From Candidatus Multivorans sp. (lineage in GTDB: Bacteria; Acidobacteriota; Thermoanaerobaculia; Multivoradales; Multivoraceae), in NCBI GenBank assembly GCA_965220845.1, contig CBDCRA010000005.1, positions 294,290 to 358,289 of the forward strand: DNA of 64,000 nucleotides, read 5' to 3'. Position 1 is the first letter of the stretch, and the number at the start of each line of letters is the position of its first letter. The notes beneath the pieces were generated by a model. That model had not been told where the DNA came from. It was given only the letters and a program-made list of their open reading frames with translations, and ran no database searches. The position numbers were made by a program, and so were the translations under genes. Shown one piece after another: positions 55,635-64,000 of this stretch.

Positions 55635-55916
55635 CTACTCGTCGCCGGCTTCTTCAAGCTTCGCAAACACCTCGTCCGCGCTGGCGAACCGCACGCTGCG
55701 CTCCTTCACCATCTCATCCACCTCGGCCATGGCCTCTCGGGTCCGAGCGTTCGGCACCTTGAGCTCGAGTAGGAATGCCTGATCGACGGCGATGCGGTGG
55801 AACAGCAGCCGCACGGCCTGCGAAGCCGTCAATCCCGTCGCCGCGAGCGCGGCTGTTGCCGCTCGTTTCGTCTCGGCGTCAATCCGGACGTGCAGGATCG
55901 AAGTCCGCGTCATCAT
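55635..55916 (-). CDS. RelB/DinJ-family antitoxin with no adjacent toxin
   Basis: LHVRIDAETK...GLTASQAVRLL...LKVPNARTREAMAE...F. Confidence 0.88.
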   Translation of the reverse strand: MMTRTSILHVRIDAETKRAATAALAATGLTASQAVRLLFHRIAVDQAFLLELKVPNARTREAMAEVDEMVKERSVRFASADEVFAKLEEAGDE

Positions 55917-55958
55917 CAGAGTATTCCGTGTCTCTTCTGCGAGATGAAGGAAGTGCCG

Positions 55959-56939
55959 CTATCTCGTTCGTGTGATGCTGGGCCGCAGGCCAGCCGAGCG
56001 CTCTTCAAACCAGGTCTGCATCGGAGGCGGAGTTCCAGCGTCTTCGAGTGTCACCGCCAGATCGTTTGGGTGCTTGGCGACCAACGTCTCGTGAGCGCGG
56101 CTCGCTATCCAGGCGTTGAGGCTGGCCACCAGCTCCTCGGTTGCCGTTTCCGGCGTGAACTTCTTCTTCCAAGGCGGTACGACCAGCGCGCGAGAGGGAG
56201 AAAGCGGGAAGTACACGGCGTACTCGTCGTCTTCGGGCATCCGGTCCTCCTGCGGAGCAAGGATGTTCACGACCGGGTGGTCGCTGGTAACGAAGCGGCG
56301 CTGCGTCTCGTTCCTCAGAACAGTCGGTGGGTGCCCGAGCCGGTCCAGGAAGTGAACGCAGGTCATGTTGGCGCCTACGAGTCTCGCCAGAACCGCAGCA
56401 CCACCCTCGGACAAGAAGCCCAACCCGCTGATATGCGCTCGGACACCGTGTCCGCGAAACGCCATGTCACCAAGAAACTCGAAGAAGTCCAGCCCCGACC
56501 GGGAGTCGACCAGGACATCTGCGTCTCCCTCTAGGAGCCGGTCCACGATGGCCTTTGCCCTGTCCTCCGACTTGGTCAGGCGCCGCTCTTCATTGTCTCT
56601 GAGAGCACCGGACAGCAGTTCCTTCTCCTCCTCCGACAGGTGCGGCGAAGGCAGGACGAGGGTCTTCAGCGTCGAGTGGAACAGCGCGCCCTCCAGGATC
56701 GTTTCTGCCATGGGGCGAGCGTTCTCGGACGTGACGTTCTGCGAGACGAACGTGGACAGGAGGCAGATGTCCTGCATGGTCAGGACCGGAGCCTCGTAGA
56801 AGTCGCGCCTGCCGAGGATGTTCCTCGGATTGGTCGGTCCCAGGGTCTGGCCGTTCCTCGAGAAGACCACGCGGCCCTTCTCGTCCCCCCAGTTCGCCAT
56901 GTACCACCGAGGGACATAGTGCTGATGCCTTGCCGCCAT
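55959..56939 (-). CDS. DUF4238-like protein
   Basis: N-terminal HQHYVPRWY, FVTSDHPV and YFPLSP motifs. Confidence 0.75.
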   Translation of the reverse strand: MAARHQHYVPRWYMANWGDEKGRVVFSRNGQTLGPTNPRNILGRRDFYEAPVLTMQDICLLSTFVSQNVTSENARPMAETILEGALFHSTLKTLVLPSPHLSEEEKELLSGALRDNEERRLTKSEDRAKAIVDRLLEGDADVLVDSRSGLDFFEFLGDMAFRGHGVRAHISGLGFLSEGGAAVLARLVGANMTCVHFLDRLGHPPTVLRNETQRRFVTSDHPVVNILAPQEDRMPEDDEYAVYFPLSPSRALVVPPWKKKFTPETATEELVASLNAWIASRAHETLVAKHPNDLAVTLEDAGTPPPMQTWFEERSAGLRPSITRTR

Positions 56940-57155
56940 CACAGCTTCCTCCAGACGCGAGCCCCTGGACGGCCCTGCCTGAACCTCGGTAGCCCAGGCG
57001 GCCGGCGCTCTTGGCTGCCCTGGCCACCACCACCGAGCCGGAACGGAGCGGCGGAGCAGCTTTCTCGATACTAGCCGCCGCTTGCGTTGTGGGGCTACGA
57101 TGGCCGCTCCGAGAGATCGTCCTGACTGACGGGATCGACAATCACACCGACGACG

Positions 57156-58736
57156 ATGGCTAGCAGGCGAACCGGCAGCAGCGCAACGACCGGCTACGAG
57201 GCCGAACTGTGGGCGATGGCCGATGCGCTTCGCGGCTCGATGGACGCGGCCGAGTACAAGCACGTCGTGCTCGGCCTCATCTTCCTGAAGTACATCTCGG
57301 ACGCCTTCGAGGAGCGCCGGGCGGCCGTGCTGGCCGAGTGGGGCGAACAGGCGGCGGAGGACCGCGACGAGTACGTCGCGGAGAACATCTTCTGGGTGCC
57401 GCGGGAGTCCCGCTGGGCGCGCCTGAAGGCGCGGGCGCGGCAGCCGACGATCGGCCGGACCGTCGATGAGGCCATGACCGCGGTCGAGCGCGACAACCCG
57501 GCGCTGAAGGACGTGCTCCCCAAGGACTACGCGCGGCCCGCCTTGGACAAGCAGCGCCTCGGCCAGCTCATCGACATGGTCGGCAACATCCGCGTCGGCG
57601 ATGCCGAGGCCCGTTCCCGGGATGTGCTGGGCCGGGTCTACGAGTACTTCCTCTCGCAGTTCGCCAGCGCCGAGGGCAAGAGGGGCGGCGAGTTCTACAC
57701 ACTGCGTTGCGTCGTCAGGCTTCTCGTCGAGATGCTGGAGCCGTACCGGGGCCGGGTCTACGATCCCTGCTGCGGCTCATCGGGCATGTTCGTGCAGTCG
57801 GTCGAGTTCATCCGCGCCCACGCCAGCGGCACGGCAACGGCAACGGCAACGGCAACGGTGCCCGCCGACATCTCCATCTACGGCCAGGAGTCCGCCTACA
57901 CGACGTGGCGGCTCGCCCGGATGAACCTAGCCATCCGCGGAATCGGAGGGCAGATCGCCCACGGCGACAGCTTCCACGACGACCGCCATCCGGACCTGAA
58001 GGCGGACTTCATCCTCGCCAATCCTCCGTTCAACGTTTCGGACTGGGGCGGCGAACGGCTTGCCGAAGACAGGCGCTGGCGGTATGGAGTCCCGCCGAAG
58101 GGCAATGCGAACTTCGGCTGGGTGCAGCACATGGTGCACCACCTGGCGCCGGAGGGCGTGGCGGGGTTTGTTCTCGCCAACGGATCGATGTCGTCGAGCC
58201 AATCCGGCGAAGGTGAAATCCGTCGCAGGCTGATCGAGGAGGGGAACCTGGTGGACTGCATGGTCGCTCTGCCGGGGCAACTCTTCTACTCGACGCAGAT
58301 CCCGGTCTGCCTGTGGTTCCTCGCGCGGGATCGAAAGGCCGGAGTGTCGCACGCCCGCGCCGGCGAGATTCTGTTCATCGACGGCCGCGACCTGGGCCGG
58401 ATGGTGGACCGCACGCACCGGGAACTGACGTCCGAGGACATTGCCGAGATCGCCGCCACTTATCAGGCATGGCGCGGCGGGGAAGGGGTCGTCGAGTACG
58501 AGGACAAGCCCGGCTTCTGCAAGAGCGCGACGCTTGAAGAGATCGGCGGACACGACCATGTGCTGACGCCGGGGCGCTACGTCGGCATGAAGCCGCGGGA
58601 GGACGACGGCGAGCCGTTCGAGGAGAAGATGGCCCGGCTCGCCGCGCAGTGGCGGGAGCAGCAGGGCGAGGCGCGCCGGCTGGACGCGGTGATCGAGAAG
58701 AACCTGATGTCGCTGGGCTTCGGAGTGGAGAAGTGA
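57156..58736 (+). CDS. hsdM: Type I R-M methyltransferase subunit
   Basis: [36 protein letters not shown] and LTPGRYV. Confidence 0.95.
57833..57856 (+). repeat. (GGCAAC)4 simple sequence repeat within hsdM
   Basis: Four perfect hexamers; read as TATATATAT in the gene frame and GNGNGNGNG in an alternative frame. Confidence 0.9.
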
Positions 58737-58802: not shown

Positions 58803-58994
58803 ATGCCTAAGGTCCGTGAAGCGATTCGCGCTGTCGAGCGGGACGGTTGGCGGCGCATCACGACACGGGGTAGCCATCGCCAGTACCGGCATCCGGTGAA
58901 GCCGGGGAAGGTCACGATCGCAGGTAAGCTCAGCGTGGACGTGCCGCCGGGTACGTGGAACAGCATCATGAAGCAGGCTGGCCTCAGGAAGTGA
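58803..58994 (+). CDS. hicA: HicA toxin
   Basis: DGW...RGSHRQYRHPVKPGKVTI...GTWNSIMKQAGL. Confidence 0.92.
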   Translation: MPKVREAIRAVERDGWRRITTRGSHRQYRHPVKPGKVTIAGKLSVDVPPGTWNSIMKQAGLRK

Positions 58995-59001
58995 GAAGCT
59001 C

Positions 59002-59226
59002 GTGAAGTACATGATCGTGATCGAGAAGACGCCGACAAGCTATGGCGCATACGCGCCCGACGTGCCGGGCTGCGTTGCCGCTGCCGAGACGCGTTCCGAG
59101 GTCATCCAACTCATGCGCGAGGCGCTAGCCCTTCACCTCGAGGGTCTCCGGGAGGACGGCGATCCGATTCCGCCGCCGTTGGCATCATCCGTGGAAGTGG
59201 AGATCGGATTGGCCGCTACCGCGTAG
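59002..59226 (+). CDS. hicB: HicB antitoxin (short form, no DNA-binding domain)
   Basis: YMIVIEK...YGAYAPDVPGC...EALALHLEGLREDGDPIP. Confidence 0.92.
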   Translation: MKYMIVIEKTPTSYGAYAPDVPGCVAAAETRSEVIQLMREALALHLEGLREDGDPIPPPLASSVEVEIGLAATA

Positions 59227-59251: not shown

Positions 59252-59677
59252 GTGGGCATCGACACCACGTTCTTCAAGGAGTGCCTCGACCGGCTGGAGG
59301 TCTACTGTCAACTCCTGGACCGCGACCGTGAGGACGAAACGGCTCGCCGGCTCGGGCGAGAGCTCTGCATCGAGCGGTTCGAGGTGGCTCTCGAACAGAG
59401 CGGCAAGCTGTTGAGGAAGACGTTGCGCCCGTGGTTCGCAAGCAACCGGGCAGCGGACCGCCTGACGTTCCGGGACCTGTTTCGGCACGCGGCCAAGCAC
59501 GGCCTGATCGACATGGAAACCGCAGAGCGCTGGCTGACCTACCGGGACAGCCTGAACGGCAGCGGCGAGCCGGACGGTGCCGACCCCGCCGTCGTGGCGG
59601 CGGTGGAGGGCCTGCCTGCCTTCGTCGCCGACGCCCGGGCGCTGGTCGCGGTGGTCGAGCGGGCGCGCGATGACTGA
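59252..59677 (+). CDS. HI0074-like HEPN (nucleotidyltransferase substrate-binding) protein with degenerate RX4HXY motif
   Basis: FEVALEQSGKLLRK and FRDLFRHAAKHGLI, followed by WLTYRDSLNGSGEPD where an RNxxxHxY motif is expected. Confidence 0.8.
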   Translation: MGIDTTFFKECLDRLEVYCQLLDRDREDETARRLGRELCIERFEVALEQSGKLLRKTLRPWFASNRAADRLTFRDLFRHAAKHGLIDMETAERWLTYRDSLNGSGEPDGADPAVVAAVEGLPAFVADARALVAVVERARDD

Positions 59678-61382
59678 ACGCCTCCACCTACTGCCGCGCC
59701 ATCGAGTGCAGCTCGAAGCCCTGCTGCGCGCACACCTCCCCGAAGTGGAGGTCTGGGCCTACGGCAGCCGCGTGAACGGCCAGAGCCACGACGGCAGCGA
59801 CCTGGATCTCGTGCTGCGAGGTCCAGGATTGGAGGAGATCGACGTTTTGGCCCTCGACGACTTCACCCAGGCGCTTCACGATTCGACCATCCCGTTCCTG
59901 GTCGAAGCCCGCGACTGGGCGCGCTTGCCGGAGCGTTTTCATCGGGAGATTAGGGGAGGCTACGTCGTTCTCATCGGGAAGCCAAGACGCGGCGAGTGGC
60001 CTAGGGTCCGAGTCGAGGAGATCGCCGAGAAGGTGGCGATGGGACCCTTCGGTTCTTCGATCAAGGTGGAGACTTATGTGGCCCAAGGCGTTCCCGTCAT
60101 CAACGGGAAGCACCTGCACCGTTGCCGATTGGACGAGGGCGCTGGCTTCAACTACATCAGCGAAGAGCACGCGGATCGTCTCGTGAACGCCAACGTCGGG
60201 CCCGGAGACATCGTGTTCACTCATCGTGGCACGATCGGTCAAGTGTCCATCATTCCTCGCAGTGCTCAACACGACCGCTATGTCGTCTCACAGAGCCAGA
60301 TGTACGTCAGATGTGACGAATCGAGGGTGTTGCCGGAGTTCGCGGCTCAGTGGTTCGCTTCGCCGGAAGGAAGGCATGCGCTCCTTGCAAACACGTCCCA
60401 GGTCGGCGTCCCATCGATCGCACAGCCGGCGAGCTACGTGAAGACAATCCTGATTCCGCTCCCTCCGATTGACGAACAACGAGCCATCGCCCGCATCCTC
60501 AGTACGCTGGACGACAAGATCGAGCTGAACCGGCGAATGAACGAGACGCTGGAGGCGATGGCGCGGGCGCTGTTCAAGTCCTGGTTCGTCGATTTCGACC
60601 CGGTCCGCGCCAGGATGAAAGGCCGGGACACGGGCCTGCCGGAGGACCTCGCCGCTCTGTTTCCCGATCGACTGGTGGACTCCGAGATGGGTGACATACC
60701 GGAGGGGTGGACTTCAGCACCACTGAGAGAGTTGATCGACGTCAATCCCAAGCGACCCCTGCGCCGGGGAGAAGTCGTTCCGTATCTCCCAATGGCTGGC
60801 ATGCCGACACGGGGACACGTCCCGACCGCAGTTGGCACTCGAGCCTTCGGCTCTGGCATGCGGTACGTCAACGGCGATACGCTCGTCGCCCGCATCACAC
60901 CGTGTCTGGAGAACGGAAAGACGGCCTTCGTCGATTTCTTGCGCGAGGGCGAGGTTGGCTGGGGCTCCACGGAGTACATTGTGTTGAAGCCCAAGCCTCC
61001 TCTCCCCGACCAGTTTGCTTACTGCCTTGCACGCAGTGCGACCTTTCGGGAGTTCGCGATTCAGAGTATGAGTGGTACGAGTGGGCGCCAGCGCGTACCG
61101 GCAGCTGCAGTGAAGGAGTTCCTGATCGCTGCTCCTTCCAGACTGATTGCGGAACTGTTCGGGGAGGTCGTTGGGGCACTCTTCGAGCGAGCGAATGGAG
61201 CGGGTCTTGAGTCCCGCACCCTCGCCGCCCTCCGCGACACCCTCCTCCCAAAGCTCGTCTCGGGCGAACTCCGCGTTCGCGACGCCGAGGAGCTCGTCGA
61301 ATCGTCCGCCTCCGCGCCGCAGGCCCCAACTACCGACACCGGTACGCCTCACGAACTGACAGGGCCCGGGCAATGGCGTTAG
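59670..61382 (+). CDS. hsdS: MNT nucleotidyltransferase fused to a type I R-M specificity subunit
   Basis: N-terminal GS-X10-DLD, then two TRDs with PLPPIDEQRAIA...LDDKIELN and LRDTLLPKLVSGELRV, in one uninterrupted ORF. Confidence 0.9.
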   Translation: MTERLHLLPRHRVQLEALLRAHLPEVEVWAYGSRVNGQSHDGSDLDLVLRGPGLEEIDVLALDDFTQALHDSTIPFLVEARDWARLPERFHREIRGGYVVLIGKPRRGEWPRVRVEEIAEKVAMGPFGSSIKVETYVAQGVPVINGKHLHRCRLDEGAGFNYISEEHADRLVNANVGPGDIVFTHRGTIGQVSIIPRSAQHDRYVVSQSQMYVRCDESRVLPEFAAQWFASPEGRHALLANTSQVGVPSIAQPASYVKTILIPLPPIDEQRAIARILSTLDDKIELNRRMNETLEAMARALFKSWFVDFDPVRARMKGRDTGLPEDLAALFPDRLVDSEMGDIPEGWTSAPLRELIDVNPKRPLRRGEVVPYLPMAGMPTRGHVPTAVGTRAFGSGMRYVNGDTLVARITPCLENGKTAFVDFLREGEVGWGSTEYIVLKPKPPLPDQFAYCLARSATFREFAIQSMSGTSGRQRVPAAAVKEFLIAAPSRLIAELFGEVVGALFERANGAGLESRTLAALRDTLLPKLVSGELRVRDAEELVESSASAPQAPTTDTGTPHELTGPGQWR

Positions 61383-63124
61383 ATCCAGCGCAGCTCTGGC
61401 GGCACATCGCCCTTGGCGAGGACACCGAACTGGAGCTCAAGGGCGTTGCCTTCCGGGGTGAAAAGGTCTCCGCGCCCCGCCGGGATGCGCTCGCCGACGA
61501 GCTGGCCGCGTTCGGCAACGGGCGCGGTGGACGCCTGGTCTTGGGCGTGTCGGACGACCGGCGGCCACAGGACCTCGACTCCAGCCAACTCGACGTGCTC
61601 GTGAGCTTCGTTGGGGAGATCTGCACGGACAGCGTCAAGCCGCCTCTCGACTACGGCGTCTACCGCGTGCCGGCCGAGAGCGCGGCCGGCGGCGTCCTGG
61701 TCGTCGAGATCCCGGCGTCCGCGGCCGTGCATCGATCCCCCGGGGGCTACTTCCGCCGCCGGGGCGATCGCAAACAGCAAATGGATGCGGCCGAGATCCG
61801 CCGGCTGTCGCACGCGCGCGGCCAGTCGGACGCCGCTTCGACCGACACGCGGGTGGTTCGGGGTACCGGCGTCAACAGTCTCGCGCGGGACCTTTGGCGG
61901 CGCTACGTCAGCTCCCGGATCGACGATCCGCCCGAGACCTCCCTGAGCAAGCTGAAGTTCGTCAAGACGGATGCCGGCGGCAGCCTGCGGGCGACGATCG
62001 GAGGCGTGCTGCTCGCGTCGGAGGACCCCCGCGAGTGGCTGCCGAACGCCTGGATTCAGGCCGTCGCCTATCGCGGAGACCGGCCGGACGCCGGGCGCCA
62101 GATCGATGCGAGGGAGATCTCCGGCCCTCTCGACCGGCAGATTCGCGAGGCGCTCCGCTTCGTAGCGGCCAACCAGCGCGTGGCGGCGTACAAGGACCCG
62201 GCCCGCACCGACGTGCCGCAGTTCAGCGAGCGAGCCGTCTTTGAGGCTGTCGTCAACGCGGTGGTGCATCGCGACTACGCGGTGTCCGGATCGCGCATCC
62301 GGCTGTTCCTCTTCGAGGACCGGCTCGAGCTGTACTCGCCGGGCGGCCTGTGCAACTCGATGACCCCGGAGGATCTGCGCACAAGCCAGTTCACGCGCAA
62401 CGAACTGCTTGCGTCGCGGCTGGGCCAATGCGCCGTGGGCGACGTGCCCGGGGCGGGCGGCCGGGCGTACTTCATCGAACGCCGCGGCGAGGGAGTGGCC
62501 GTCATCGAGGACGAGACCTTCGCTCTGGCGGGGCGGCGGCCTGTCTTCGAATTGATCGGGGAGCGGGAACTGAAGGTCGTTCTGCCGGCCGCGCGCCCCC
62601 CGGTGGCGGACGGCGTCGCGGCGCGCGTGGCCGCCGCCCGCCGCGACACGGGCGAGCCGTTGCCGGGCGTGCATGTGCTGATGGCGTACCCGAACCGGAC
62701 TTACCGGGAGGCGCGGACGGATGCCTTCGGGAGCGTCGAGTTCCTGCTTCACGAGAGGCTGCCGATGACCGTGCTCTGCGCGGCGGAGGGGTTCGGGGCG
62801 CATGTGGAGCGAAACTGGGCGCCCGACGGACCGCTCGAAGTCCTCATGCGGCCGGCGCCGGACGGGGGTTCGTTGATCATCGCCGACCGCTCGGGAAACC
62901 TCCCCGGCATCCAGGGACGCCTGAACCCGATACTGGACAGGCTTGACCGCACATACCTCTACGCGGACAACGTCGCGATCAACGACGGGCAGACCCAGCC
63001 GGTGCACTTCTCGCTCAACGAGCCGGTGCGCCTCACGGACGCCCTCGGCGCCGCCGCCACGCTCTGGTTCCGCGAGATGATCGGTGCCTCCTGCGTCTTC
63101 GATTTCCGCCGCGAACGGCCGTGA
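61373..63124 (+). CDS. AlbA_2 (Schlafen-like) plus HATPase_c_4 protein with extra C-terminal beta-rich domain
   Basis: GEDTELELK, AAFGNGRGGRLVLGVSD, EAVVNAVVHRDY, DRLELYSPGGL and IERRGEG. Confidence 0.85.
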   Translation: MALDPAQLWRHIALGEDTELELKGVAFRGEKVSAPRRDALADELAAFGNGRGGRLVLGVSDDRRPQDLDSSQLDVLVSFVGEICTDSVKPPLDYGVYRVPAESAAGGVLVVEIPASAAVHRSPGGYFRRRGDRKQQMDAAEIRRLSHARGQSDAASTDTRVVRGTGVNSLARDLWRRYVSSRIDDPPETSLSKLKFVKTDAGGSLRATIGGVLLASEDPREWLPNAWIQAVAYRGDRPDAGRQIDAREISGPLDRQIREALRFVAANQRVAAYKDPARTDVPQFSERAVFEAVVNAVVHRDYAVSGSRIRLFLFEDRLELYSPGGLCNSMTPEDLRTSQFTRNELLASRLGQCAVGDVPGAGGRAYFIERRGEGVAVIEDETFALAGRRPVFELIGERELKVVLPAARPPVADGVAARVAAARRDTGEPLPGVHVLMAYPNRTYREARTDAFGSVEFLLHERLPMTVLCAAEGFGAHVERNWAPDGPLEVLMRPAPDGGSLIIADRSGNLPGIQGRLNPILDRLDRTYLYADNVAINDGQTQPVHFSLNEPVRLTDALGAAATLWFREMIGASCVFDFRRERP

Positions 63125-63157: not shown

Positions 63158-64000
63158 ATGATCGGCGGCGTCGGCGCCTTCTTCACCGAGTCGGAAGTCG
63201 AGGAAGCAGCGCTCGAATGGCTCGACGGCCTGGGCTGGCGGGTGGCCCACGGCCCCAACGTGGCTCCGGGCCGGGTGGCCGCGGAGCGGACCGACTACAG
63301 CGAGGTCATCCTGGAGCAACGGGTGCGCGAAGGCTTGTCGCGGCTGAATCCCGGCTTACCCGCGGAGGCGCTGGATGACGCGTTTCGCAAGCTGGCCCAA
63401 GTCGAGGGCTCGACGCTGGAAGGCCGCAATCGGGCTTTCCACCGCATGATGGTGGACGGCGTGACCGTCGAGTACCGGACCGCTGGAGGCTCGCTTCGGG
63501 GCGCGCAAGTGGCCGTCCTCGACTACGAGTATCCCATCAACAACGACTGGCTGGCGGTCAACCAGTTCACCGTCGTAGACGGCGAGCACGAACGGCGGCC
63601 GGACATCGTGCTGTTCGTCAACGGTCTTCCGCTGGCTGTGATCGAACTCAAGAACCCGGCGGACGAGAAGGCGACTGTATGGACGGCCTGGAACCAGATC
63701 CAGACCTACAAGACCGAGCTTCCGAGCTTGTTCGCCTTCAACGCCGCAGTCATCGTTTCGGATGGCGTCGAGGCGCGAATGGGCACTCTCACCGCGGGGC
63801 GGGAGTGGTTCAAGCCATGGCGCACGATCGGTGGGGAGACCCTCGCCGACCCGGCTCTGCCTCAGTTGCAGGTGATGCTAGAGGGGGTTTGCCAGTGGGA
63901 CCGGTTCCTGGAGTTTGGTTCGCGACTTCGTCGTGTTCGAGGACGACGGCAGTGGCGAGCTGTCCAAGAAGATGGCCGGCTATCACCAGTTCCACGCTGT
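63158..64000 (+). CDS. hsdR: Type I R-M restriction subunit (5' part; apparent frameshift near 63915)
   Basis: Manual translation: [14 protein letters not shown]...NDWLAVNQF...[31 protein letters not shown] continues in the +1 frame; the gene runs off the window. Confidence 0.9.

Follow-up and report, generated by a model that had tools for sequence, protein, structure and literature searches.

An MNT-HsdS fusion and a HEPN gene without its RNase motif in a type I restriction-modification operon of Candidatus Multivorans

The DNA analyzed here (the window) is a stretch of 64,000 nucleotides from Candidatus Multivorans sp. (assembly GCA_965220845.1, contig CBDCRA010000005.1, positions 294,290 to 358,289). 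A type I restriction-modification (R-M) operon lies at its right end, with all genes co-oriented in the order hsdM, hicA, hicB, a HEPN gene, a gene that joins a minimal nucleotidyltransferase (MNT) to the specificity subunit HsdS, a Schlafen-HATPase gene and hsdR. This report concerns the HEPN gene, which belongs to the HI0074 type and does not hold the RX4HXY motif, and the MNT-HsdS fusion that overlaps it. The motif-less HEPN was found to be part of an old, conserved lineage and not a relic. The MNT-HsdS fusion is labile and travels with cassettes of the first target recognition domain (TRD1). The features of the two genes are as follows (aa, amino acids).

59252..59677, plus strand: HI0074-type HEPN gene, 141 aa, without RX4HXY (PF08780)
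59372..59383, plus strand: E41-R-F-E44 on the HEPN dimer helix, aligned with Q44/E47 of a Legionella HEPN
59546..59578, plus strand: degenerate HEPN motif loop, D99 to G109, with R replaced by L101, H by E106 and no Tyr (alignment with relatives)
59670..59978, plus strand: MNT domain of the HI0073/MntA type, N-terminal part of the fusion (1NO5, HI0073, E 1.7e-16)
59763..59807, plus strand: GSX10DXD catalytic motif, G32 to D46 (alignment)
59979..61382, plus strand: linker and full HsdS with two TRDs (PADLOC PDLC03089)

The fusion is a single open reading frame (ORF) of 570 aa that runs from an ATG at 59670 to 61382 with no internal stop, and this ATG overlaps the HEPN stop by 8 nt. A longer GTG start at 59577 is possible; homologues do not use it. 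Within the MNT part, the motif G32-S33-X10-D44-L-D46 is intact, E79 aligns with the likely third carboxylate, and PF01909 was matched at aa 17-56 with 20.5 bits, slightly below the 21-bit cut-off. GSX10DXD was invariant across 61 aligned MNTs. The HsdS part was recognized by PADLOC model PDLC03089 at aa 108-545 (profile positions 3-444 of 446, E 1e-133). Logan contigs of runs X1, X4, X6 and X7 span both the HEPN motif region and the MNT-HsdS junction and have no indel there among the rows listed, so that neither the fusion nor the motif loss looks like an assembly error. Runs X4, X6 and X7 come from three studies and X1 is possibly the source run; those whose label can be read are metagenomes of sponge or marine origin, and the host is probably a sponge-associated acidobacterium. 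With contigs from several studies across motif region and junction, an assembly artefact was ruled out. An earlier note on this DNA had described an intact MNT and a full two-TRD HsdS in one ORF. This description stands, as the 570-aa frame recurs without indel in contigs of three studies and the stop or frameshift that was looked for between MNT and HsdS did not appear among the rows listed.

The window HEPN was matched by PF08780 only, at 35.9 bits (cut-off 31.8), and not by PF05168. Its predicted structure (predicted local distance difference test, pLDDT, 89) has the HI0074 fold (1JOG, TM 0.77). The loop reads DSLNGSGEPDG where relatives read DNRNDTAH-DYG, and thus holds one extra residue; in the alignment with these relatives, R is replaced by L101 and H by E106, and the loop has no Tyr. 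No alternative RX4H was present anywhere in the 141 aa. A compensated frameshift masking the motif was ruled out, since 19 close homologues have an in-frame degenerate loop too. The earlier note had read DSLNGSGEPD in place of RNxxxHxY and had proposed that the RNase residues and the acceptor Tyr were lost while the MNT was intact; R, H and Tyr are indeed gone, no intact RX4H was found elsewhere in the HEPN, and the same loss beside an intact MNT is true of the whole lineage. The interpretation in that note is supported in part; it overlooked that the HEPN keeps its MNT-docking face and the carboxylates E41/E44.

The HEPN alignment comprised 188 rows and was biased toward relatives of the window HEPN; RX4HXY is present in 108 rows, 72 are without RX4H, 7 are without the Tyr only and 1 was unclassified. 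The motif-less sub-clades A (26 rows) and B (23 rows) together form one 49-row clade with an SH-aLRT support of 100, and the support for A plus B was 100/100 in a 44-row subsample from which the motif columns had been dropped. Across the HEPN family, about 13-15 changes of the RX4HXY state are needed. A match was found in 23 of 40 congeners and in none of 15 genomes of other genera in the family, and 5 of the 301 genomes in a sample of the phylum matched at E<=1e-15.

Residues that are kept in motif-intact relatives and altered in the motif-less clade include Y32, D33, A37, K41, R101, H106 and the Tyr, while D13, R14, V45 and A46 are conserved specifically in the motif-less clade. Only 1 of the 49 rows of the motif-less clade holds a Tyr in the motif loop, so that AMPylation of a cognate HEPN Tyr by the MNT cannot occur here. 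The mean loop charge is about -3 in the motif-less clade vs -1.3. The window residues E41 and E44 align with Q44/E47, an Mg site reported as catalytic in a Legionella HEPN. Of the 108 motif-intact rows, 106 have K at position 41; in the motif-less clade, 44 of 49 rows have E or D there (E41 in all 26 rows of clade A; acidic in 18 of 23 in clade B), and 48 of 49 retain E44. None of the 23 clade B rows has kept R36. E41 also occurs in 9 of 9 rows of a motif-less clade from Rhodothermales (loci L068, L070, L071, L072 and L088), in which the HEPN is without His and Tyr and keeps the Arg, and the MNT is fused to HsdS in five of five loci. Convergent K41E in the two clades was not shown, as a single origin was not rejected (approximately unbiased, AU, test, p=0.37).

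The ratio of nonsynonymous to synonymous substitution rates (dN/dS) was calculated with the Goldman-Yang (GY) model from 11 loci of clade A and 5 of clade B. For HEPN it was 0.123 in clade A and 0.177 in clade B, and for MNT 0.137 and 0.074, respectively. Neutrality (omega=1) was rejected for both genes in both sub-clades (2dlnL 105-204, the value for clade A HEPN being 204). Control clades with an intact motif gave 0.088 and 0.099 for HEPN and 0.124 and 0.145 for MNT, and the Rhodothermales motif-less clade gave 0.19 and 0.14. Because the HEPN values lie above those of the motif-intact clades but far below 1, constraint on the motif-less HEPN is somewhat relaxed yet strong. It was greatest at aa 43-66 (amino-acid vs synonymous changes 4 vs 16 in A and 5 vs 17 in B) and weakest at the C-terminus and the old motif loop (12 vs 9 in A and 17 vs 8 in B). 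The HEPN frame is intact, at 140-141 aa, in 16 of the 17 clade A/B loci. Across 15 loci, the MNT codons G32, S33, D44, D46 and E79 had 1 amino-acid change vs 10 synonymous changes, and catalytic positions were broken in 2 of 36 distinct MNT sequences of the motif-less clade vs 5 of 149 outside it (two pattern misses removed). The MNTs of motif-less pairs form their own clade (14 rows, SH 99; one clade-A MNT falls outside), which argues that they were not resupplied from intact pairs. The suggestion that this locus holds a relic was not borne out, with HEPN dN/dS at 0.12 and 2dlnL of 204 vs neutrality.

A 2:2 HEPN-MNT complex was predicted. It scored 0.62 vs 0.01 for the best of three controls, against a mark reached by 116 of 157 solved pairs vs 2 of 215 mismatched pairs; because the complex is like those already solved (8XEH, 5YEP), passing this mark shows likeness to them and not binding itself. 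Between runs of the 2:2 complex, at least 52% of contacts agree, and the pLDDT of the partners does not fall below 88. The predicted interface brings HEPN aa 72-99 against MNT 40-44 and 70-77, with mean HEPN conservation of 0.87 in the interface vs 0.76 elsewhere. It falls on conserved residues and includes HEPN R74, the equivalent of the MNT-binding R73 of the Legionella HEPN, and the MNT surface residues that face HEPN are the same in motif-intact and motif-less pairs. The window HEPN is predicted still to bind its MNT.

The distribution of the fusion was determined by comparing the MNT region with proteins of 313-998 aa, which gave 1,231 matches among 3,252 candidates. The HsdS central motif is present in 117 of the best 119 non-self matches and [YF]GSX10DXD in 117 of the 120 listed; 17 of these 120 have two MNT motifs, as tandem MNT-MNT-HsdS proteins. 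Some MNT-HsdS proteins carry a domain of the DUF559/MTES_1575 type (PF04480, PF18741). Examples of tandem-MNT or DUF559-type variants are P0008, P0013, P0022, P0034, L084 and L126; upstream, the last two have a HEPN that belongs to another HI0074 type and is likewise degenerate. The same genome has, on another contig (C3), a further MNT-HsdS fusion that is accompanied by a motif-less HEPN. A fusion on plasmid pZMOB01 of Z. mobilis ATCC 10988 (L139, NC_017180.1:3-5154), which follows a motif-intact HEPN and precedes hsdR, was used as another seed and gave 145 matches among 212 candidates, with names that include Xanthomonas, Ferrovum and Methylobacter; the MNT motif is intact in all 120 listed matches. 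A scan of JGI metagenomes gave 598 pattern matches, none of which was confirmed.

A census of loci in GTDB genomes covered the best 80 of at least 250 confirmed loci, ranked by MNT similarity. The MNT is fused to HsdS in 41, accompanied by a separate hsdS in 13 and without hsdS nearby in 26. Fused and unfused loci number 20 and 24 with an RX4HXY HEPN and 14 and 8 with a HEPN without RX4H (p=0.20, with L128 and L130 reclassified and the loci not independent); covariation of fusion with motif loss was therefore not found. The other 14 loci comprise 6 HEPNs without the Tyr only, 2 frameshifted, 4 deleted and 2 of another HEPN type with tandem MNTs. In the loci with deleted HEPN (L083, L092, L094 and L103), the gene is reduced to its last codons and the MNT is intact; in L103, hsdM reads into a C-terminal remnant of HEPN and is still coupled to MNT-HsdS. 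An MNT-HsdS fusion with HEPN deleted was counted in 2 of the 80 loci. Each of the 17 clade A/B loci examined is part of an R-M operon or of what remains of one, whereas several motif-intact pairs stand alone.

Among 11 clade-A loci of congeners, 4 are fused, 4 have an unfused MNT, 2 are split and their hsdS is truncated, and in 1 the MNT is truncated. In the four unfused loci, the stop of a 122-aa MNT overlaps the GTG of an intact hsdS by 4 nt, and the HEPN is motif-less all the same. An MNT tree of 87 rows required 22 changes of fusion state. In two clade-B loci, junction and TRD1 have 83-91% DNA identity with those of the window, against only 63-80% identity for the HEPN, and fusion state was uniform in 9 of 10 TRD1 clusters (45 loci, of which only 7 are split). 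One contig of run X4 matches the C3 locus as far as the 3' end of the MNT and then continues with a junction of the window TRD1 type (compared by eye). These patterns suggest that TRD1 and the junction are swapped together, by crossovers in the conserved 3' half of the MNT and in the central region of HsdS. As the fusion is found most often beside an intact HEPN, does not covary with motif loss and is absent in sister loci, it gives no support for a new R-M target. The earlier note had taken the tether as pointing to such a target. That step was not supported by the search for MNT-HsdS fusions (1,231 long matches) and the comparison of neighboring HEPN motifs in 80 loci, in which 20 fusions stand beside an intact HEPN and 14 beside a motif-less one (p=0.20), and it is weakened further by the four close sister loci that combine a motif-less HEPN with an unfused MNT.

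The remaining genes of the operon are listed below.

57156..58736, plus strand: hsdM, type I methyltransferase, 526 aa, frame open (PF02384 and PF12161; PADLOC MTase_I, E 1e-213)
58803..58994, plus strand: HicA toxin within the operon (PF07927, E 2.5e-17)
59002..59226, plus strand: HicB-like antitoxin (PF15919, E 7e-12)
61373..63124, plus strand: Schlafen/AlbA_2 and HATPase_c_4 gene between hsdS and hsdR (PF04326, PF13749)
63158..64000, plus strand: 5' part of hsdR, frameshifted near 63915 and running past the window end (profile matches and contigs)

The R-M subunits differ in state, with hsdM and hsdS open (the latter with two TRDs) and hsdR broken in the window strain. At the frameshift near 63915, contigs of runs X1 and X4 match the window and X6 is without one base and in frame. 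Relative to hsdR of contig C3, the window hsdR also misses about 5 codons before the helicase motif. The second type I system of this genome, on C3, has an in-frame stop near 108720 in hsdM, so that each of the two systems has one broken subunit gene; C3 hsdM is unbroken in run X4 and the window hsdR in run X6. The two systems are 78% identical in M and about 80% in R, and they might complement each other. A short (ACGGCA)n repeat at 57830-57858 of the window hsdM encodes a TATATA tract, with an 8-nt insertion there in run X7. On the minus strand (55635-57263), divergent from hsdM, are a DUF4238 gene and a gene for a RelB-type antitoxin, and the Schlafen/AlbA_2-HATPase_c_4 gene has a C-terminal extension that is unmatched in the other congener loci compared. 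A promoter scan returned 0 sites.

The reading that we tentatively prefer, at somewhat less than an even chance, is that a disarmed HepT-MntA pair has been retained as an antidote to active sister HEPN toxins. For chromosomal toxin-antitoxin (TA) pairs, anti-addiction is established according to PMC7167474, the MNT of class I HepT/MntA AMPylates the Tyr of RX4HXY according to PMC7641770, and HEPN RNases are described as acting in dimers (PMC13000451, PMC11586414). By this account, a class I HepT-MntA cassette of the HI0074/HI0073 type in a type I R-M operon lost its HEPN motif throughout the lineage. The HEPN would no longer be an RNase; it would stabilize the MNT and could poison incoming toxin dimers by forming mixed dimers. 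The MNT would in turn act on related RX4HXY toxins in circulation among sponge symbionts, AMPylating their Tyr as a form of anti-addiction, and the fusion to HsdS would likely be a tolerated read-through state of translationally coupled genes rather than a means of directing the MNT to R-M subunits. Motif-intact sister toxins are abundant among co-occurring symbionts and within the same genus, being found in 108 of the 188 HEPN rows and in 6 of the 24 congener loci shown (one of these 6 seems to be damaged at the 5' end). The genome that holds the window also has four PF05168 matches and one PF01934 match, the latter next to an MNT match that contains an internal stop.

Several observations weigh against the antidote reading. 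An incoming cassette brings its own MNT, so a benefit would arise only upon the loss of that MNT. Classical anti-addiction needs the antitoxin only and does not by itself explain why the HEPN is kept. In 4 of 80 loci, the MNT is still present although the HEPN has been deleted. Elsewhere in this genome, neither a PF08780 RX4HXY toxin nor an orphan PF08780 toxin was found. Invariant positions make up 54 of 99 MNT sites in the lineage, and the catalytic codons, which are clear vs neutrality, are not outstanding vs the rest. In a toxin of the same family, an Mg site is reported as catalytic, and E41/E44 could make up this site. Where hsdS is downstream, the MNT is fused in 41 of 54 loci, and fusion is maybe favored and not merely tolerated. 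The score of the predicted complex may reflect likeness to solved HEPN-MNT complexes, and an antidote role is one that the pair may have.

The same conservation could come from a domesticated two-subunit nucleotidyltransferase (NTase), in which the motif-less HEPN binds the substrate or regulates the enzyme and the MNT acts on a new substrate, maybe an R-M subunit or anti-restriction protein. To this we assign a fairly small chance. It would agree with MNT catalytic residues that are kept without a cognate Tyr and broken in only 2 of 36 sequences, with purifying selection on both HEPN and MNT, with the placement of all 17 clade A/B loci in R-M operons or remnants, with the residues D13, R14, V45 and A46 peculiar to the clade, and with a domestication route that PMC3710099 describes for motif-less HEPN domains. 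The fusion, though, does not covary with motif loss (p=0.20) and is absent from four sister loci with an intact hsdS, the MNT surface facing HEPN is the same in motif-intact and motif-less pairs, the replaced loop differs between A and B and evolves fast, hsdR is frameshifted in the window strain, and nothing found points to R-M subunits. The concrete picture of a pseudo-RNase HEPN dimer with an active NTase on HsdS and a new target for nucleotidylation, for example an R-M subunit or anti-restriction protein, in type I R-M operons of sponge symbionts has a small chance of being right, and the narrower proposal of the earlier note, in which the target is an R-M subunit or anti-restriction protein, is quite improbable. 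If true, an NTase acting on an R-M target would be a covalent layer of control on type I R-M enzymes. It is unlikely, too, that the HEPN is still an RNase, acting through an Mg2+ site on the dimer helix (E41/E44 of both protomers) and restrained by MNT binding without AMPylation. In the Legionella HEPN, R98A and H103A retained activity and toxicity, and Q44A and E47A reduced both (PMC11586414); Q44/E47 align with the window residues, position 41 is acidic in 44 of 49 rows and E44 is present in 48 of 49, E41 recurs in 9 of 9 Rhodothermales motif-less rows, and helix residues 43-66 are the most constrained. This proposal draws on one paper that is at odds with the usual RX4H model (PMC7641770, PMC3710099); in addition, 5 of 23 clade-B rows have a residue other than an acid at position 41, R36 is replaced in 23 of 23, a more acidic loop (about -3 vs -1.3) should disfavor RNA binding, the conserved MNT catalytic residues are left unexplained, and convergence was not shown, as a single origin of the two E41 clades was not rejected (AU p=0.37). 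The motif-less lineage offers a natural test of the disputed claim that an HI0074-family HEPN cuts RNA at the Mg site and not at RX4H.

A structural role was given a similarly low probability. Here the HEPN frame would be held open for translational coupling to hsdS, with a dead dimer that only caps and stabilizes the MNT domain on which HsdS depends or which it carries, and with MNT catalysis irrelevant. The 8-nt HEPN/MNT overlap and the 4-nt MNT/hsdS overlap in unfused loci fit such coupling, as do constraint concentrated on the core and binding surfaces, the broken DxD of two clade-B MNTs and the report that MNT domains are protease-labile unless stabilized (PMC13000451). On the other hand, MNT catalytic residues break no more often here (2/36) than outside (5/149), MNT dN/dS is like that of motif-intact clades, MNT-HsdS fusions persist with HEPN deleted in 2 of 80 loci, and coupling alone would not keep dN/dS near 0.12. 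That the locus is the neutral relic of a PrrC-like guard module, which once released a toxin upon attack on R-M, is highly improbable. HEPN toxins in type I R-M operons do act as back-ups in PrrC/EcoprrI (PMC3710099; bioRxiv 10.1101/2024.01.29.577857), RX4HXY was lost about 13-15 times in the family, and hsdR here and hsdM of the second locus are broken; against this, dN/dS is 0.12-0.18 with neutrality strongly rejected, and HEPN frames are intact in 16 of 17 clade A/B loci. The neutral part of this explanation is largely refuted by dN/dS.

Among known systems, one of the closest to the window pair is class I HepT/MntA (S. oneidensis SO_3166/SO_3165; PF08780 or PF01934 with PF01909), as described in PMC7641770. 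It has the same HEPN and MNT genes, fold and GSX10DXD, with an adjacent PF08780 HEPN, but this HEPN is without Arg, His and Tyr and hence without RX4HXY; the HEPN lies upstream of the MNT, and the MNT is fused to HsdS. The nearest solved relatives by sequence and fold are HI0074/HI0073 of H. influenzae (1JOG/1NO5) and the Legionella HEPN-MNT pair (8XDJ/8XEH; PMC11586414). They share the MNT-docking Arg and the helix-2 Glu with the window, whereas both keep RX4HXY, the Legionella Q44 stands where the window has E41, and no HsdS fusion is reported in the parts of the source that were covered. Class II HEPN/MNT (PF05168) also places a motif-less HEPN beside a GSX10DXD MNT in the account of PMC7641770. 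It belongs to another Pfam family and keeps a conserved acceptor-type Tyr; the window HEPN was matched by PF08780 only and not by PF05168, and its clade is class I-derived and without a conserved loop Tyr. KNTase and GlnD/GlnE likewise combine a catalytic NTase with a non-catalytic HEPN partner, although in those enzymes, according to PMC3710099, HEPN and transferase form one protein with a known substrate, and in the window the HEPN is a separate gene. The motif-less lineage is a natural intermediate for asking how TA pairs become domesticated.

That type I R-M operons carry HEPN genes as cargo has been described (PMC3710099; bioRxiv 10.1101/2024.01.29.577857), and PMC3710099 notes that 17% of HEPN-M proteins do not have the motif. 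PrrC/EcoprrI, as presented in these two sources, resembles the window in having a co-oriented HEPN gene among hsd genes with other cargo, here HicAB and Schlafen. It differs in that the window HEPN is a stand-alone protein of 141 aa with no ABC-ATPase match and no RX4H, linked to R-M through the fused antitoxin; the fused ABC-ATPase and active HEPN of a PrrC-type guard are thus absent. Since the pair fails the RX4HXY test of class I and the family test of class II and is without the PrrC ATPase, it is filed as a derived variant of class I HepT/MntA. The open-access literature searched, in which the supplements of PMC3710099 and PMC7641770 were included only in part, held no description of an MNT-HsdS fusion or of the motif-less clade, and both the type VII antitoxin-HsdS fusion and the long-lived motif-less HEPN lineage appear undescribed. 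HsdSp of Z. mobilis ZM4 (PMC8432527) could not be shown to be an MNT fusion, so the phenotype of its deletion was left aside. With 1,231 and 145 long matches from two seeds, MNT-HsdS is a widespread architecture hidden under the label "subunit S", the only annotation that the pZMOB01 fusion of Z. mobilis ATCC 10988 carries; the literature covered does not characterize this fusion. On that plasmid (WP_014466388/WP_014466389), an HI0074 gene with an intact motif overlaps MNT-HsdS and is followed by hsdR, which makes cultured Z. mobilis a tractable model of the ancestral architecture.

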